This document shows positions 1,823-8,439 of a stretch of DNA of 9,373 nucleotides, in pieces (positions within the stretch are counted from its first letter, which is position 1; each line of letters starts with the position of its first letter). This stretch comes from a virus. Lineage: Duplodnaviria; Heunggongvirae; Uroviricota; Caudoviricetes. The notes beneath the pieces were generated by a model that ran no database searches, had not been told where the DNA came from, and saw nothing but the letters and a program-made list of their open reading frames with translations. The position numbers and the translations under genes are program-made. The DNA lies in the IMG/VR virus record IMGVR_UViG_2695420792_000007; one strand, written 5' to 3'.

Positions 1823-2389
1823 ATGCTTATTGGCTATGTACGCGTGTCAACAAATGACCAGAACACCGATTTGCAACGTAATGCACTGAACTGCGCGGGA
1901 TGTGAGCGGATTTTTGAGGACAAAATCAGTGGCACTAAGTCCGACAGACCGGGGCTGAAAAAACTACTCAGGACACTATCGGCAGGAGACACGCTGGTTG
2001 TCTGGAAGCTGGACAGGTTGGGGCGCAGTATGCGGCATCTTGTTACGCTGATAGAAGAGTTGCGCCAGCGTGGTGTGAATTTCAGAAGCCTGACTGACAG
2101 TATTGATACCAGTACCCCAATGGGCCGTTTCTTTTTTCATGTCATGGGTGCCCTGGCTGAAATGGAACGCGAACTGATAGTTGAACGTACCAGGGCAGGG
2201 CTGGCTGCAGCTCGTGCCAAAGGCAGAGTAGGTGGACGCCGTCCTAAGTTGACCACCGAACAGTGGGCACAGATTGGGCGTTTACTCGAGGCCGGAGAAT
2301 CAAGACAGCGTATTGCACTGATTTTTGATGTAGGCGTTTCTACCATTTATAGAAAATTTCCGGCAAATAAGATCAATGAATCCCCCTGA
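1823..2389 (+). CDS. pin: Serine DNA invertase, Gin/Hin/Cin/Pin family, copy 2
   Basis: 190-aa translation in the ORF track is identical to copy 1; same start-codon reasoning (track start 1817). Confidence 0.9.
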   Translation: MLIGYVRVSTNDQNTDLQRNALNCAGCERIFEDKISGTKSDRPGLKKLLRTLSAGDTLVVWKLDRLGRSMRHLVTLIEELRQRGVNFRSLTDSIDTSTPMGRFFFHVMGALAEMERELIVERTRAGLAAARAKGRVGGRRPKLTTEQWAQIGRLLEAGESRQRIALIFDVGVSTIYRKFPANKINESP

Positions 2390-2427
2390 ATCAGCATTAT
2401 GTTGATTATCCCTGCAAGCAGACAAAT

Positions 2428-2445
2428 ACCGTTATTTTGTGTGAA
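2428..2445 (+). promoter_or_regulatory. TGT-N12-ACA Ogr/Delta-type activator box, copy 2
   Basis: Same sequence as 1005-1022, upstream of the second sheath start at 2532. Confidence 0.5.
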
Positions 2446-2531
2446 TAACGACACAACTGCGCTTAGCTGTTTGTCAGGCACAATCACTTCAACATAGGGC
2501 GAAGCCTAATCCAATCAGGAGGTTCGCCACT

Positions 2532-2915
2532 ATGGCTCAGGATTACCACCACGGGGTGCGCGTTGTTGAAGTCAACGAAGGCACCCGATCTATTACCACG
2601 GTGAGCACCGCCATCGTGGGTATGGTCTGCACGGGCGATGATGCCGATGCAAAAATGTTTCCTCTTAATAAACCCGTGCTGATCACTGATGTGCTGACTG
2701 CCAGCGGTAAAGCGGGTGAGTCAGGTACTCTGGCCCGTTCGCTGGATGCCATCGCTGACCAGGCAAAACCCGTGACCATTGTTGTGCGTGTGCCGCAGGG
2801 TGAAACGGAAGACGAAACCACGACCAATATCATCGGCGCAGTGACTGCTGAAGGTAAAAAAACAGGTATGAAAGCCCTGTTACCCGCAATATTGAACAGC
2901 TCGGTGATGCGCTGA
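2532..2915 (+). pseudogene. Tail sheath protein (P2 FI-like), truncated after about 117 codons
   Basis: [12 protein letters not shown]...[30 protein letters not shown]...[19 protein letters not shown] follows the recalled P2 FI sequence to about ...TGLKAML, then gives [10 protein letters not shown] and a stop. The ORF is 127 aa against about 396 aa recalled for P2 FI. Confidence 0.75.
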
Positions 2916-2935
2916 ACTATCTGGATGATAACGCC

Positions 2936-4984
2936 ATGTCGAAAGGGGCAGACATCATTGATGTCATGCAACGCCTGGGCGGTGTGGCTGATCGTCTGGA
3001 TTATCGTAAAGCGGCGGCGCTGGGTTCCACCTTTCTGACACTGGGCGCTGCGCCAGAGGTTGCAGCCAGTGCAGCAAACGCGATGGTGCGTGAATTGTCC
3101 ATTGCCACCATGCAAAGCAAGAGTTTCTTTGAAGGGATGAATCTGCTGAAACTCAATCCTGAAGTGATTGAAAAGCAGATGACGAAGGATGCGATGGGAA
3201 CTATCCAGCGCGTACTGGAGAAGGTGAACGCACTGCCGCAGGATAAACGTCTGTCTGCCATGACCATGTTGTTTGGTAAAGAGTTTGGCGATGACGCGGC
3301 GAAACTGGCAAACAACCTGCCGGAACTGCAGCGCCAGCTAAAACTGACAGCGGGCAATGATGCGCTCGGCTCCATGCAGAAAGAATCCGACATTAACAAG
3401 GACTCACTTTCTGCGCAGTGGTTGCTGGTCAAAACCGGAGCGCAGAACACCTTCAGCAGCCTGGGCGAAACGCTGCGCCAGCCGCTGATGGATATTCTGT
3501 ACACGGTGAAAAGCATCACGGGGGCGTTGCGCCGCTGGGTGGAAGCTAACCCGGAACTGACAGGCACACTGATGAAAGTAGCCGCTGTGGTGGCTGCGGT
3601 TACCGTAGGCCTCGGAACCTTAGCGGTGGCGCTGGCTGCAGTGCTGGGGCCGCTGGCAGTGATTCGTCTGGGATTCTCTGTGCTGGGTATCAAAACGTTA
3701 CCTTCCGTTACGGCAGCAGTAACCCGAACCAGCAGCGCGTTGTCCTGGCTGGCTGGCGCACCACTGGCACTGTTGCGACGCGGGCTTGCTTCATCGGGCA
3801 ACGCCGCAGGTTTACTTACTGCGCCGTTGTCGTCTTTGCGCCGCACGGCATTACTGACGGGAAATGTCCTGAAAACTGTAGCAGGTGCGCCGGTTGCACT
3901 TTTGCGGTCTGGATTATCCGGTTTACGTGCTGTTGCTGTGATGTTTATGAATCCTCTGGCGGTACTGCGCGGTGGACTGGCCGCCGCAGGCACGGTGCTG
4001 CGAGTACTGGCATCTGGTCCACTGGTGATGCTGCGCGTTGCCCTGTATGCCGTATCTGGTCTGTTAGGTGCTCTGCTCAGTCCGATAGGTCTTGTGGTTA
4101 CTGCACTGGCGGGCGTGGCGCTGGTTGTCTGGAAATACTGGCAACCCATCACCGCATTTCTTGGTGGCGTGGTGGAGGGATTCAAAGCGGCGGCAGGTCC
4201 CGTCAGTGAAGCATTCGAACCGCTTAAGCCCGTGTTCCAGTGGATTGGCGACAAAGTACAGGCGCTGTGGGGCTGGTTTACTGATCTGCTGACGCCCGTT
4301 AAGTCGACCTCTGCCGAACTGCAGAGTGCAGCGGCAATGGGGCGACGATTCGGGGAGGCACTGGCGGAAGGGCTAAATATGGTCATGCATCCGCTGGACT
4401 CCCTGAAATCCGGCGTTTCCTGGTTGCTGGAGAAGCTCGGCATTGTCAGTAAAGAGGTCGCAAAGGCAAAACTGCCGGAAAGCGTGACGCGTCAGCAACC
4501 TGCGACGGTGAATGCAGACGGTAAAGTGATGATGCCATCGGGTGGTTTTCCATCATGGGGATATGGCTTTGCGGGGATGTATGACAGCGGCGGGTATATC
4601 CCGCGCGGGCAGTTTGGCATCGTCGGTGAAAACGGGCCGGAAATTGTTAACGGCCCGGCAAATGTGACCAGCCGGAGAAATACAGCTGCACTGGCTGCCG
4701 TTGTTACCGGAATGATGGGAGTTGCTGCCGCGCCAGCAGAGCTTCCACCGTTGCACCCTTTGGCACTTCCCGCGAAAGGTGGAGAAGCAATTGTGAGTCG
4801 CGCAGCCACTGTGCCGCCCGTTTACAGGATTGAGGCACCGACGCAGATCATCATCCAGACGCAGCCAGGACAAAGTGCGCAGGATATTGCGCGGGAGGTG
4901 GCCCGCCAGCTTGATGAACGTGAACGCAGGCTGAAGGCAAAGGCCAGGAGTAACTACAGCGATCAGGGGGGATACGACGCATGA
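2936..4984 (+). CDS. Phage tail tape measure protein (P2 gpT-like), 5'-truncated; first in-frame ATG at 2936, frame open from 2858
   Basis: 682-aa ORF with a tape-measure-like N-region (...LGSTFLTLGAAPEVAASAANAMVRELSIATMQ...LFGKEFGDDAAKLANNLPELQRQL...), a central hydrophobic region with repeated PLxxLRxGL motifs, and a C-terminal Gly-rich end. The stop overlaps the gpU start (ATGA at 4981-4984). It is about 100+ residues shorter than the roughly 815 aa recalled for P2 T and has no RBS-equipped native start. Confidence 0.8.
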   Translation: MSKGADIIDVMQRLGGVADRLDYRKAAALGSTFLTLGAAPEVAASAANAMVRELSIATMQSKSFFEGMNLLKLNPEVIEKQMTKDAMGTIQRVLEKVNALPQDKRLSAMTMLFGKEFGDDAAKLANNLPELQRQLKLTAGNDALGSMQKESDINKDSLSAQWLLVKTGAQNTFSSLGETLRQPLMDILYTVKSITGALRRWVEANPELTGTLMKVAAVVAAVTVGLGTLAVALAAVLGPLAVIRLGFSVLGIKTLPSVTAAVTRTSSALSWLAGAPLALLRRGLASSGNAAGLLTAPLSSLRRTALLTGNVLKTVAGAPVALLRSGLSGLRAVAVMFMNPLAVLRGGLAAAGTVLRVLASGPLVMLRVALYAVSGLLGALLSPIGLVVTALAGVALVVWKYWQPITAFLGGVVEGFKAAAGPVSEAFEPLKPVFQWIGDKVQALWGWFTDLLTPVKSTSAELQSAAAMGRRFGEALAEGLNMVMHPLDSLKSGVSWLLEKLGIVSKEVAKAKLPESVTRQQPATVNADGKVMMPSGGFPSWGYGFAGMYDSGGYIPRGQFGIVGENGPEIVNGPANVTSRRNTAALAAVVTGMMGVAAAPAELPPLHPLALPAKGGEAIVSRAATVPPVYRIEAPTQIIIQTQPGQSAQDIAREVARQLDERERRLKAKARSNYSDQGGYDA

Positions 4985-5466
4985 TGATGGTGCTGGGATT
5001 GTACGTGTTTATGCTGCGCACCGTGCCGTATCAGGAACTGCAGTATCAGCGCAGCTGGCGACATGCGGCTAACAGCCGGGTAAATCGTCGTCCGTCCACG
5101 CAGTTTCTGGGACCGGACAACGACATGCTGACGCTTTCCGGTGTTCTTATGCCGGAGATAACAGGCGGCAGGCTGTCGTTGCTGGCACTGGAGCAGATGG
5201 CAGAACAGGGGAAAGCATGGCCTCTGATTGAAGGCAGCGGCACGATTTACGGCATGTATGTGATTGAGGGACTGAATCAGACTAAAACGGAGTTTTTCCG
5301 CGACGGTATGCCGCGCCGGATTGAGTTCACCCTGTCGCTCAAACGGGTGGATGAATCCCTGTCCGATATGTTCGGTGATCTCAGTGCGCAGCTGAATAAT
5401 CTGCAGGGAACGGCAACATCAGCCTTAAGCGATATCAGTAAAACGGTGGGAGGGCTTCTGTCGTGA
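4981..5466 (+). CDS. Phage tail protein gpU-like
   Basis: 161 aa, MMMVLGLYVFMLRTVPYQELQYQRSWRH..., matches the recalled P2 gpU N-terminus and length (about 159 aa). Start overlaps the T stop and the stop overlaps the D start (GTGA), indicating translational coupling in the F operon order T-U-D. Confidence 0.85.
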   Translation: MMMVLGLYVFMLRTVPYQELQYQRSWRHAANSRVNRRPSTQFLGPDNDMLTLSGVLMPEITGGRLSLLALEQMAEQGKAWPLIEGSGTIYGMYVIEGLNQTKTEFFRDGMPRRIEFTLSLKRVDESLSDMFGDLSAQLNNLQGTATSALSDISKTVGGLLS

Positions 5467-6209
5467 ATTTCAGCTCTGAACTGCTTAACAAAGGCAACAA
5501 AACTCCGGCATTCAGCATCAGTATTGAAGGCAGGGATATCACCACTGTGCTGGACAACCGCCTGATGGGGCTGACGCTGACGGATAACCGGGGATTTGAA
5601 GCGGACCAGCTTGATCTGGAGCTGGACGACGCCGATGGAAAAATCGTGCTGCCGCGCCGTGGTGCGGTCATTACGCTGGCGCTGGGCTGGAAGGGGCAGC
5701 CGCTTTTCCCGAAAGGGGCATTCACGGTGGACGAGATTGAACACACTGGCGCACCGGACCGCCTGACTATCCGGGCGCGAAGTGCTGATTTTCGGGAAAC
5801 CCTGAATACCCGCGAACCTGCGAAGAAAGAAAGCACCACGGTGAAGCGTAAGCGCAGAACTAAGAAGCAGAAGAAAGAGCCAGAAGCGAAGCAGGGCGAT
5901 TACCTGGTGGGTACGGATGAAAACGTGCTGGTACTTAATCGCACTTATGCCAACCGGAGCAACGCCGAACGAGCGGCGAAAATGCAGTGGGAACGCCTGC
6001 AACGCGGCGTTGCGTCATTCTCGCTACAACTGGCAGAAGGGCGGGCAGATCTCTACACGGAAATGCCAGTGAAAGTCAGTGGCTTTAAACAGCCGATAGA
6101 TGATGCGGAATGGACCATTACGACTCTGACGCATACCGTCAGCCCGGATAACGGTTTTACGACCAGTCTGGAGCTTGAAGTGAGGATTGATGATTTCGAA
6201 ATGGAATGA
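5463..6209 (+). CDS. Phage tail protein gpD-like (late gene D), apparently shortened by an internal in-frame deletion
   Basis: 248 aa from a GTG start. N-terminal (...LTDNRGFEADQLDLELDDADG...VDEIEHTGAPDRLTIRARSADFRETLN) and C-terminal (...WERLQRGVASFSLQLAEGRADLYTEMPVKVSGFK...GFTTSLELEVR) regions match recalled P2 gpD, but the protein is about 140 aa shorter than the roughly 387 aa recalled. Confidence 0.75.
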   Translation: MNFSSELLNKGNKTPAFSISIEGRDITTVLDNRLMGLTLTDNRGFEADQLDLELDDADGKIVLPRRGAVITLALGWKGQPLFPKGAFTVDEIEHTGAPDRLTIRARSADFRETLNTREPAKKESTTVKRKRRTKKQKKEPEAKQGDYLVGTDENVLVLNRTYANRSNAERAAKMQWERLQRGVASFSLQLAEGRADLYTEMPVKVSGFKQPIDDAEWTITTLTHTVSPDNGFTTSLELEVRIDDFEME

Positions 6210-6299
6210 TTCTTCGCAATGGAGAACTTTTAAGTTTGCAAAATGGAATAATGCGGTATCATTATTGTGAATTTAGCAAAAATGGGGAGAACTCGAAAA

Positions 6300-6518
6300 A
6301 TGATGATTTGCCCACTGTGTGGAAGTGCCGCCCATACTCGCAGCAGTTTTCAGGTATCTTCATTGACCAAAGAGCGTTACAACCAGTGCCAGAACATTAA
6401 CTGCAGCCATACTTTTGTTACCCATGAAACTTTTGTTCGTTCGATTGCAACGCCAAAAGAGTCAAATCCGGTTCAGCCGCATCCAATGAAATCAGGACAG
6501 GTGGCGCTCTCTCTTTGA
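6300..6518 (+). CDS. ogr: Ogr/Delta-family zinc-finger late transcription activator
   Basis: MMICPLCGSAAHTRSSFQVSSLTKERYNQCQNINCSHTFVTHETFVRSIATPKESNPVQPHPMKSGQ... has the CxxC...CxxxxC zinc-binding pattern and matches recalled P2 Ogr (72 aa, ...CPLCQHAAHARTS...KERYHQCQNVNCSATF...RPHP...SGQ). GGGGAGA at 6284-6290 sits 9 nt upstream of the ATG at 6300; the track's 83-aa ORF starts at an upstream GTG (6267) that is probably not used. Confidence 0.85.
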   Translation: MMICPLCGSAAHTRSSFQVSSLTKERYNQCQNINCSHTFVTHETFVRSIATPKESNPVQPHPMKSGQVALSL

Positions 6519-6598
6519 CGCTGCCGCCATTTTGTCGCCATCGTTAAAAAACAGTGTTTCTAACATCATGATTTTAAACAGCTTAAATTTCAGGCAAC

Positions 6599-6641
6599 AA
6601 AAAACCCATCAACCTTGAACCGAAATGGCGGGGTTGATGGG
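6599..6641 (-). terminator. Putative rho-independent terminator for leftward transcription (ybjL), or att-associated hairpin
   Basis: A 10-bp inverted repeat, CCCATCAACC (6605-6614) and GGTTGATGGG (6632-6641), encloses a 17-nt loop and is preceded on the plus strand by A6 (6599-6604), giving a U-tract after the stem on the minus strand. It lies about 110 nt downstream of the ybjL stop, so the assignment is uncertain. Confidence 0.4.
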
Positions 6642-6753
6642 CTCCACAAAATGGGGACATCAAAGAAAAGCAGTGGCACTAATTAAGACTGATGCCCTGC
6701 GGAAAAGTTCTGCGGTTGTGCAAAAAAATTTCATTTTCAGGGCAACTTCAGTT

Positions 6754-8439
6754 TTATCCTAATCCTGGCCATACCATGACGATGATTGTCCCTGCCAGCG
6801 TCAGCAGGACGTTGGCGATTGCATAGGTGCCCGCATAGCCCAGCGCCGGGATGTTACTGCGAGCTGTATCACTGATGATCTCCATTGCCGGCGCGCAGGT
6901 ACGTGCGCCCATCATTGCGCCGAACAACAGCGCGCGGTTCATTCGCAATACATAAGCACCGAACAAGAAACAGATAACCACGGGCACCAGACTGACAATC
7001 AATCCGGCAATCAACATCTGACCGCCAATCGCGCCCAGGCCGTTATTAATACCGCTACCGGCGCTCAGACCAACGCCTGCCATAAACACCATCAAGCCGA
7101 ACTCTTTCACCATGCTTAATGCACCCTGCGGAATGTAACCGAAGGTCGGGTGGTTAGCACGCATAAAGCCCAGCATAATTCCGGCGAATAACAACCCGGC
7201 AGCGTTCCCCATGCCGAAACTGAATGTGCTGAACTGGAAGGTGATCATCCCGATCATCAGCCCAATAACAAAGAAGGCGCAGAATGCCAGCAGGTCAGTG
7301 ACCTGGCTGTGAATCGAGATAAAGCCGATGCGATCGGCGATGGTTTTTACGCGGCGGGCATCGCCGCTGACTTGTAAAACGTCACCTTTGTTAAGCACGA
7401 CGTTGTCATCTATCGGCATCTCAATCTGGCTACGAATGACGCGGTTAAGGAAGCAACCGTGATCGGTCAACTTCAGTTGTGCGAGACGTTTACCTACAGC
7501 GTTATGGTTTTTAACGACCACTTCTTCAGTGACGATACGCATGTCGAGAAGGTCACGATCGAAAACTTCTTTACCGTTACGGAAGCTGGGATCGAGTCGG
7601 GCATGGGCGTCGGGATAGCCTACCAACGCTATTTCATCGCCCATTTGTAGCACGGCATCACCGTCTGGATTTGCCAGAATCCCGTTACGTCGAATACGTT
7701 CAATGTAGCAGCCGGTTTGTCGATAAATACCCAGTTCACGCAGATTTTTGCCGTCGGTCCAGGCCACCAGTTCCGGGCCGACGCGATAGGCGCGGATCAC
7801 CGGTAAATAAACCTTACGGTTGGCATCAGTGTCCAGGCCACGTTCGCGGGCGATTTGCTGGGCGCTGGTCTGTAAGTCCTGATGCTGCAATTTCGGCAAG
7901 TAACGCGCACCAACAATCAAACTCACCAGACCGATTAAATAGGTTAAGGCATACCCGAGGCTCAGATTATCCAGTGCCAGTGAGAGCTGCCTGCTTTCCA
8001 TGCCGGAATGACGCAGTGTATCGCCAGCACCGACCAGAACCGGTGTCGACGTCATAGAGCCTGCTAACATACCGGCCGTCAGGCCAATATCCCAGCCAAA
8101 CAGCTTACCTAACCCTAAGGCGATCACCAGCGCACTGCCAACCATCACCAGTGCTAACATTAGGTAATTTTTCCCATCGCGAAAAAAAATGGAAAAAAAG
8201 TTCGGTCCGGCTTCGACCCCGACGCAGAAAATAAACAGCATAAAGCCAAGATTAAGCGCATCGGTGTTAATGCTGAAATGTTGTTGGCCTAATAACAGCG
8301 ATACGACTAAAACGCCAATGGAATTACCCAGTTGGATCGAACCAAGTCGTAACTTTCCGAGACATAGCCCAAGCGCGAGGACCACAAATAATAACAGAAT
8401 GTAATTCCCATTTAACAATTCGGCGACGTTTATATTCAC
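6754..8439 (-). CDS. ybjL: Putative transport protein YbjL (AAE/YidE-family membrane transporter with central TrkA-C-like domains)
   Basis: 561-aa ORF from a GTG start ([24 protein letters not shown]...VMVWPGLG) with hydrophobic N- and C-terminal halves around a soluble central region. Sequence, length and the ybjL-ybjM-grxA neighbourhood match E. coli YbjL as recalled. Confidence 0.9.

Follow-up and report, generated by a model that had tools for sequence, protein, structure and literature searches.

The stretch of 9,373 nucleotides analysed here (the window) carries, at positions 6300–6518, what its sequence identifies as a genuine and intact ogr gene of a P2-like prophage. We are highly confident that this gene encodes an ordinary P2-like late activator that was left intact at the edge of a decayed prophage, with no sign of special preservation. 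Position 1 of the window is position 2 of the draft contig CYEH01000023.1 (Escherichia coli assembly GCA_001284685.2), and the window constitutes the first 9.4 kb of that contig. The listing of open reading frames, the Pfam matches and the comparison with complete E. coli genomes show that it contains the right arm of a P2-like prophage and the chromosomal genes beyond. From left to right, these are part of an invertible tail-fibre segment, a Hin-family invertase, the late promoter pF with the tail operon, ogr, the prophage end, rybB, ybjL, ybjM and grxA. Prophage genes, promoter elements and activator sites lie on the plus strand unless stated otherwise.

By these comparisons, the gene belongs to a prophage of the P2-like type (Peduoviridae) that has inserted at the 3′ end of rybB, beside ybjL, in the chromosome of an E. 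coli isolate. In E. coli genomes that lack the prophage, the match to the window does not begin before position 6584 or 6596, which places the right end of the prophage (the attR region) at 6584–6596. The small-RNA gene rybB follows on the minus strand (6596–6674; Rfam RF00110, 105.3 bits, with the hairpin visible in the sequence), and the prophage abuts its 3′ terminator. Scans of the region for tRNA genes and Rfam families returned nothing besides rybB. Integration at the rybB 3′ terminator is a habit of a group of P2-like phages that about 20% of complete E. coli genomes carry, and resembles the placement of the K-12 element PR-X, with ogrK, beside cyaR. A literature search for rybB as a P2-like integration site found nothing specific.

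Ogr is a 72-residue protein in which zinc is held by four cysteines. The gene at 6300–6518 encodes such a C4 zinc-finger activator of late transcription, and its Ogr_Delta match marks it as a likely real coding sequence. The frame that ends at 6518 matches Pfam PF04606 (Ogr_Delta) over model positions 2–47 of 47, with 77.6 bits against a cutoff of 26.3 (E = 6.7e-22), and is open to its end; the intact ogr-type reading frame reported in a preliminary description of this DNA is thereby confirmed, as is the conservation of its zinc ligands. Cysteines 4, 7, 30 and 35 of the 72-residue form are arranged as CX2CX22CX4C, and all four are kept in an alignment with P2 Ogr and the K-12 protein OgrK. This zinc motif defines the Ogr family (PMC3931495). 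As is typical of the family, a single-domain protein of about 72 residues is encoded after D at the att-proximal end of the tail operon; the order D–ogr–att of P2 and of the intact relatives appears here as D′–ogr–attR, the prime denoting a truncated D. The proteins 186 B, P4 Delta, PSP3 Pag and phiR73 Delta belong to the same Pfam family, P4 Delta being a covalent two-domain form, unlike the single-domain Ogr of the window.

The gene had been placed at 6267–6518 and credited with its own ribosome-binding site. The latter stands, in that GGGGAG at 6284–6289 is located 10 nt before the ATG at 6300, whereas the earlier start does not. The GTG at 6267 is in frame but lies further upstream, and it was rejected as the start because it lacks a Shine–Dalgarno sequence and because all annotated homologues are 72 residues long. 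The ATG equivalent to that at 6300 is the start in P2, in K-12 OgrK and in all RefSeq relatives (72 residues).

RefSeq WP_000972391.1 matches the Ogr sequence of the window with 100% identity; SA31-1, HS and ECCHD184 encode it in prophages that look intact and occupy the same place next to rybB and ybjL. The Ogr proteins of the isolated Klebsiella phages ST512-KPC3phi13.2 and 4LV2017 are likewise 100% identical to it, and at least 1000 contigs are known to carry exactly this sequence. At the nucleotide level, the gene has four differences from that of SA31-1, all of them synonymous, and a 431-bp region comprising ogr is 100% identical to the intact prophage of ECCHD184. Identity is 51–55% to P2 Ogr and K-12 OgrK, which are nearly identical to each other, and 54% to 186 B, which also shares the four cysteines. 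Residue 42 is His in the window protein and Tyr in both P2 Ogr and OgrK. We take Tyr42 to be the residue changed in the ogr52 mutant, a suppressor of the rpoA109 block that concerns interaction with the alpha subunit of RNA polymerase. In view of this substitution, contact with the alpha subunit may differ in detail, and the interaction of the window allele may be somewhat different from that of P2 Ogr.

The tail operon upstream of ogr is heavily damaged. The breakpoints were mapped against the intact prophage of SA31-1, and they bear out the earlier view of a tail-defective prophage with broken structural genes. A deletion of 2805 bp relative to SA31-1 has removed the region from FI codon 118 to T codon 325, together with FII, E and E′; at its junction, 2882/2883, FI codon 117 runs out of frame into T codon 326. 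According to the breakpoint map, FI is reduced to codons 1–117 (to 2882) followed by 10 out-of-frame codons (2532–2915), and this product is also found in Logan. T, identified by its open reading frame, by Pfam and by comparison with relatives, retains the C-terminal 682 of 1025 codons and has lost its natural start (2936–4984). U is intact (4981–5466; Pfam Phage_P2_GpU, 150 bits). D (5463–6209) carries an in-frame deletion of 354 bp, with an 8–11 bp direct repeat around 5803–5813; it has lost 118 codons compared with SA31-1 and retains 248 of 366. Both NCBI and Logan list the shortened products of FI, T and D.

The 248-residue form of D also occurs in other E. coli isolates whose prophages decayed differently, and the D deletion is for this reason taken to be real and older. 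One such prophage, in GCA_021916765.1, has an F operon that is complete save for the D deletion (10001–10747 of the compared stretch), and its head genes are gone. From these comparisons, the D deletion seems to be an older first hit that is shared by the lineage. The FI/T junction was found in none of 5426 complete E. coli genomes, and an exact-match scan of species-representative contigs, a set that does not include this strain, gave no match. The complete FI–FII–E–E′–T–U–D tail operon of a functional P2-like prophage is thus not present. The F operon between pF and ogr has been wrecked by the FI–T deletion, the D deletion and possibly a duplication of 970 bp that is considered below. Since the FI–T and D deletions destroy the operon, tail production is impossible, and the prophage, judged by these lesions, cannot make tails.

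The preliminary description attached significance to the retention of ogr although its targets are broken. The mode of decay does not sustain that emphasis. The damage consists solely of deletion and rearrangement, in two or three recent events, and there is no point damage in the surviving frames, which are all open (both copies of the invertase, the 682 codons of T, U and the 248 codons of D). The surviving DNA is 96–100% identical to intact prophages, and over the 431 bp around ogr the identity is complete, as mentioned above. The gene measures 219 bp and is the last before attR, about 66–78 bp from the prophage end. Because ogr is small and last before attR, and because the decay is recent and deletion-only, its intactness is expected without selection; a deletion that removed it would have to end inside a very small target of about 300 bp or run into rybB and ybjL.

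Selection would be the alternative, with ogr kept as a domesticated trans-activator that acts as a tripwire by firing the late genes of incoming P2-like phages prematurely, as a helper signal to P4-like satellites resident in the cell, or in the regulation of host genes. Independent remnants at the rybB site and at the cyaR site do keep an intact ogr after the loss of most or all structural genes. This ogr region is present in 1119 of the 5426 complete genomes but at least 80% of D plus ogr in 942, several complete genomes besides BL21(DE3) and K-12 retain ogr with a D stub only, and such recurrence of ogr-only remnants could reflect selection too. The edge effect, however, gives the same pattern unaided. 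The ogr sequence is, moreover, identical to that of intact phages, which leaves no time for selection to show, and there is no TGT-N12-ACA element at a host promoter within the window, the matches at 8400 and 9055 being located inside ybjL and ybjM. We consider selection for such a role very improbable. Slightly less credible still is the broader proposal that the attR-edge ogr genes of the window, of BL21(DE3) and of K-12 PR-X have been selected as standing trans-activators that mis-time phages or arm satellites, in the present case with a compact positive-feedback switch, which the surviving and perhaps duplicated pF would form by transcribing through the shortened operon into ogr. Survival of an ordinary activator at the prophage edge is the reading that we adopt.

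An intact ogr next to attR, with the structural genes upstream deleted or truncated, is the hallmark of a cryptic ogr remnant. Such remnants are already known, and the one in BL21(DE3) even encodes the identical protein. In that strain (NC_012892.2, 875885–892600, beside ybjL), a prophage at the same site encodes an identical Ogr, with the tail operon destroyed and ogr intact next to attR; as in the window, an invertible tail-fibre segment and an invertase are located upstream. The difference is that in BL21(DE3) a single deletion has fused what remains of the invertase with a C-terminal portion of D (15763–16712 of the compared stretch), with the loss of pF and of FI through U. In the window, pF has survived (in two copies if the assembly is correct), as have pieces of FI, the C-terminal two thirds of T, the whole of U and a D with an internal deletion. 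K-12 PR-X is similar in having an intact 72-residue ogrK (b2082) with four cysteines, a D fragment upstream (yegZ, a gpD pseudogene) and a small-RNA attachment site. It is much shorter, with 629 bp against over 6 kb of tail-region DNA retained here, and it is located at cyaR instead of rybB. Given the same configuration and identical protein in BL21(DE3), and the more extreme case of PR-X, the idea of an ogr gene persisting in a decayed prophage is not new. The pattern is familiar: owing to its place at the prophage edge, the late activator is left when the structural genes have gone. The gain is mainly one of annotation, in that the gene is now defined as ogr (72 residues, 6300–6518) and the locus as a defective P2-like prophage at rybB/ybjL, with little beyond.

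Phage P2 itself (NC_001895; ogr at 24036–24254) agrees with the window in gene order, in the size of the protein, in the CX2CX22CX4C motif and in the presence of a dyad upstream of FI at a similar distance. Its pF has TGT-N12-CCA, whereas the dyad of the window is a perfect TGT-N12-ACA. The strong terminator that follows ogr in P2 is missing in the window, and the place of the Z/fun region upstream of P2 pF is occupied by the invertase and the invertible tail-fibre cassettes.

At P2-type late promoters, Ogr contacts the C-terminal domain of the alpha subunit from a dyad centred about 55 bp upstream. The window has Ogr-type activator sites of pF at 1015–1032 (copy 1) and 2438–2455 (copy 2), both with the sequence TGTGTGAATAACGACACA, in which TGT-N12-ACA is part of the extended dyad TTGTGT-N8-ACACAA. 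They had been reported at 1005–1022 and 2428–2445, and are actually located 10 bp further to the right. TGT-N12-ACA is the consensus of Ogr-type sites (PMC3931495; PMC3152322), and activators of this type bind at about −55 and activate via the alpha subunit of RNA polymerase (PMC3152322). The number of motifs was discarded as evidence for Ogr boxes. The window contains six TGT-N12-ACA elements against 2.68 expected, a count of six being reached by 9 of 200 shuffles, and the counts in related loci are likewise at chance level. Only position and conservation are informative, and it is because of these, and not of the count, that the box is taken as real.

For this comparison, the regions upstream of FI from eight phages were aligned, anchored at the FI start codon; the identity of the FI N-terminal protein sequences to the window ranges from about 64% to 95%. 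In this alignment, TTGTGTGAATAACGACACAA of the window aligns with the activator-binding site of P2 pF as annotated in GenBank (17555–17583). All eight diverged phages share TTGT and CA without exception, and downstream they also preserve a −10-like element, A..AT(A/G)G. Aligning the pF region with P2 only, by pairwise MAFFT, gave a misleading picture, which the FI-anchored alignment of eight sequences resolved. The distance from the dyad centre to the FI ATG is 85.5 bp here and 82.5 bp in P2. On the strength of its position and conservation, the dyad at 1015–1032 and 2438–2455 is the activator site of pF.

A −10 element of pF is predicted at 1067–1072 in copy 1, where CAACAT aligns with GAAAAT of P2. 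The P2 element (17614–17619) sits 7–9 nt before the annotated pF start at 17626–17628; by analogy, transcription from pF in the window would start at about 1079–1081, with the centre of the box at about −56. Perfect dyads also occur in the relatives, among them BL21(DE3) with its identical Ogr; one lies between P and O, the other 55.5 bp ahead of the ATG of V.

The claim that matching boxes stand upstream of both sheath fragments needs to be qualified. The boxes do align with the P2 pF site, but they constitute a single observation instead of two, because they are the same sequence inside a direct repeat of 970 bp (313–1282 and 1736–2705) whose copies are 100% identical. The repeat comprises a hix-like site, the invertase gene, pF and FI codons 1–58. 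It begins 6 bp to the left of a hix/cix-like crossover site of 26 bp that was read from the sequence, TTCTCCCAAACCAACGTTTAAGAAAA (319–344, second copy at 1742–1767), and that presumably resembles the consensus of Hin-family sites. The invertase (copy 1, 400–966; copy 2, 1823–2389) belongs to the Hin/Gin/Cin family (Pfam Resolvase, 180.6 bits, and HTH_7); its RefSeq relatives have 188 residues. Copy 1 of FI codons 1–58 (1109–1282) is joined at 1282/1283 to the antisense strand of a tail-fibre assembly gene. The latter is part of an alternative tail-fibre cassette, B, on the minus strand (1283–1795), which consists of the N-terminal 58 codons of the assembly gene (1283–1458) and a C-terminal exon of the tail fibre (1460–1795; Pfam Gp53-like_C). 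Cassette B is 99.8% identical to the invertase-adjacent cassette in E. coli S1-CAM-01-A. The serine invertase, the 26-bp site and the alternative cassettes are the components of a Hin/Gin/Cin/Pin inversion system, whose left-hand site and constant H part are located outside the window.

The two copies of the repeat are preceded by different cassettes, copy 1 by cassette A, as in SA31-1, and copy 2 by cassette B, as in S1-CAM-01-A and others, so that they look like two inversion states in tandem. Such an appearance, with a repeat that starts at the hix-like site, is also what would be expected if the two sheath fragments and two boxes were an artefact, in which a phase-mixed culture with a single invertase–pF–FI copy was mis-assembled at a contig end. 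The duplicated region is less than 3 kb from the end of the draft contig, at whose second position the window begins, and the duplicated arrangement was found in none of the 5426 complete E. coli genomes. A 140-residue FI::tfaB fusion frame that spans the junction is absent from the protein collection, where the other truncated products of the contig are present; it is listed in the gene table of the contig itself. Its absence is hard to interpret, and the look-up lends the duplication no independent backing. The junction between FI codon 58 and antisense tfaB codon 58 (1282/1283), on the other hand, shows at most 3–4 bp of homology, whereas a de Bruijn-graph chimera normally joins at a repeat of k-mer length. 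In addition, the other two rearrangements of the contig are backed by a second source, and exactly this structure would arise if sister chromosomes in opposite inversion states had undergone an unequal exchange. We lean slightly towards a real event, which could be an exchange of this kind, and hold mis-assembly to be a substantial possibility that falls somewhat short of an even chance. The apparent two promoters and two sheath fragments may accordingly stem from the assembly of a phase-variable segment at a contig end.

At 1268–1284, the join between FI and tfaB gives rise to a short palindrome, GTGCTG-ACTGC-CAGCAC, followed by TGGTTTTCC, with a terminator-like score at chance level. At this palindrome, the window has CAGCACTGG where the natural tfaB has CAGTGCTGG, the central two bases being reverse-complemented.

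Expression of ogr could be driven by a sigma-70-like promoter of its own or by read-through from pF over the shortened operon. The candidate promoter, TTTGCA-16-TATCAT at 6235–6262, was identified by a consensus scan and has its −10 element ending 37 nt before the ATG. The scan is weak evidence when taken alone, as it returned one site against 1.0 expected, with a consensus match of 9/12. The candidate coincides in position with the annotated Pogr of P2, in which the −10 element ends 34 nt before the ATG. A terminator search from 2455 to 6300 found none that was convincing, and in P2, according to its annotation, one terminator is common to ogr and the F operon. As pF should read through to ogr with no convincing terminator between them, the positive loop in which Ogr activates pF and pF transcribes ogr is probably still formally intact here.

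These observations bear on the possibility that ogr is a dead relic, a sequence that is intact but is never expressed and has no activity in this strain. P2-type late activators are kept low in lysogens, which would agree with a relic, as would a promoter that matches 9 of 12 consensus positions and occurs at chance frequency. Against it, the candidate promoter sits at the position of P2 Pogr, and copy 2 of pF would be able to read through into ogr. The cryptic ogr genes of K-12 and B are, furthermore, reported to be transcribed; in 1992, Slettan et al. reportedly showed that they are expressed and complement a P2 ogr deletion. We regard a dead relic as unlikely.

Downstream of ogr, no clear intrinsic terminator was found, the hairpin detected 3′ of the gene having a z value of −0.98. 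This weak-hairpin arrangement is shared with the intact prophages. Transcription of ogr and from pF is directed antisense into rybB without a strong terminator between, and may continue past ogr into that gene.

Members of the Ogr/Delta family activate one another's late promoters (PMC8628076). The Ogr of the window, if expressed, should accordingly be able to activate pF and other late promoters of the P2, 186 or P4 type in the same cell, and, by analogy with the family, may plausibly cross-activate further elements of the P2-like or P4-like kind. If orphan activators are expressed, they could affect infection by P2-like phages or the mobilisation of P4-like satellites in about one fifth of E. 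coli strains. This question has already been posed for K-12 and B, and the window adds nothing special to it.

The variable regions of the related prophages contain differing defence-type genes. In BL21(DE3), the region (1999–4047 of the compared stretch) encodes the reverse transcriptase of a retron St85 and an effector, and that of GCA_021916765.1 (587–2332 of the compared stretch) encodes a GmrSD-type nuclease. The prophage of SA31-1 (1–985 of the compared stretch) has a P-loop NTPase at the orf30 position.
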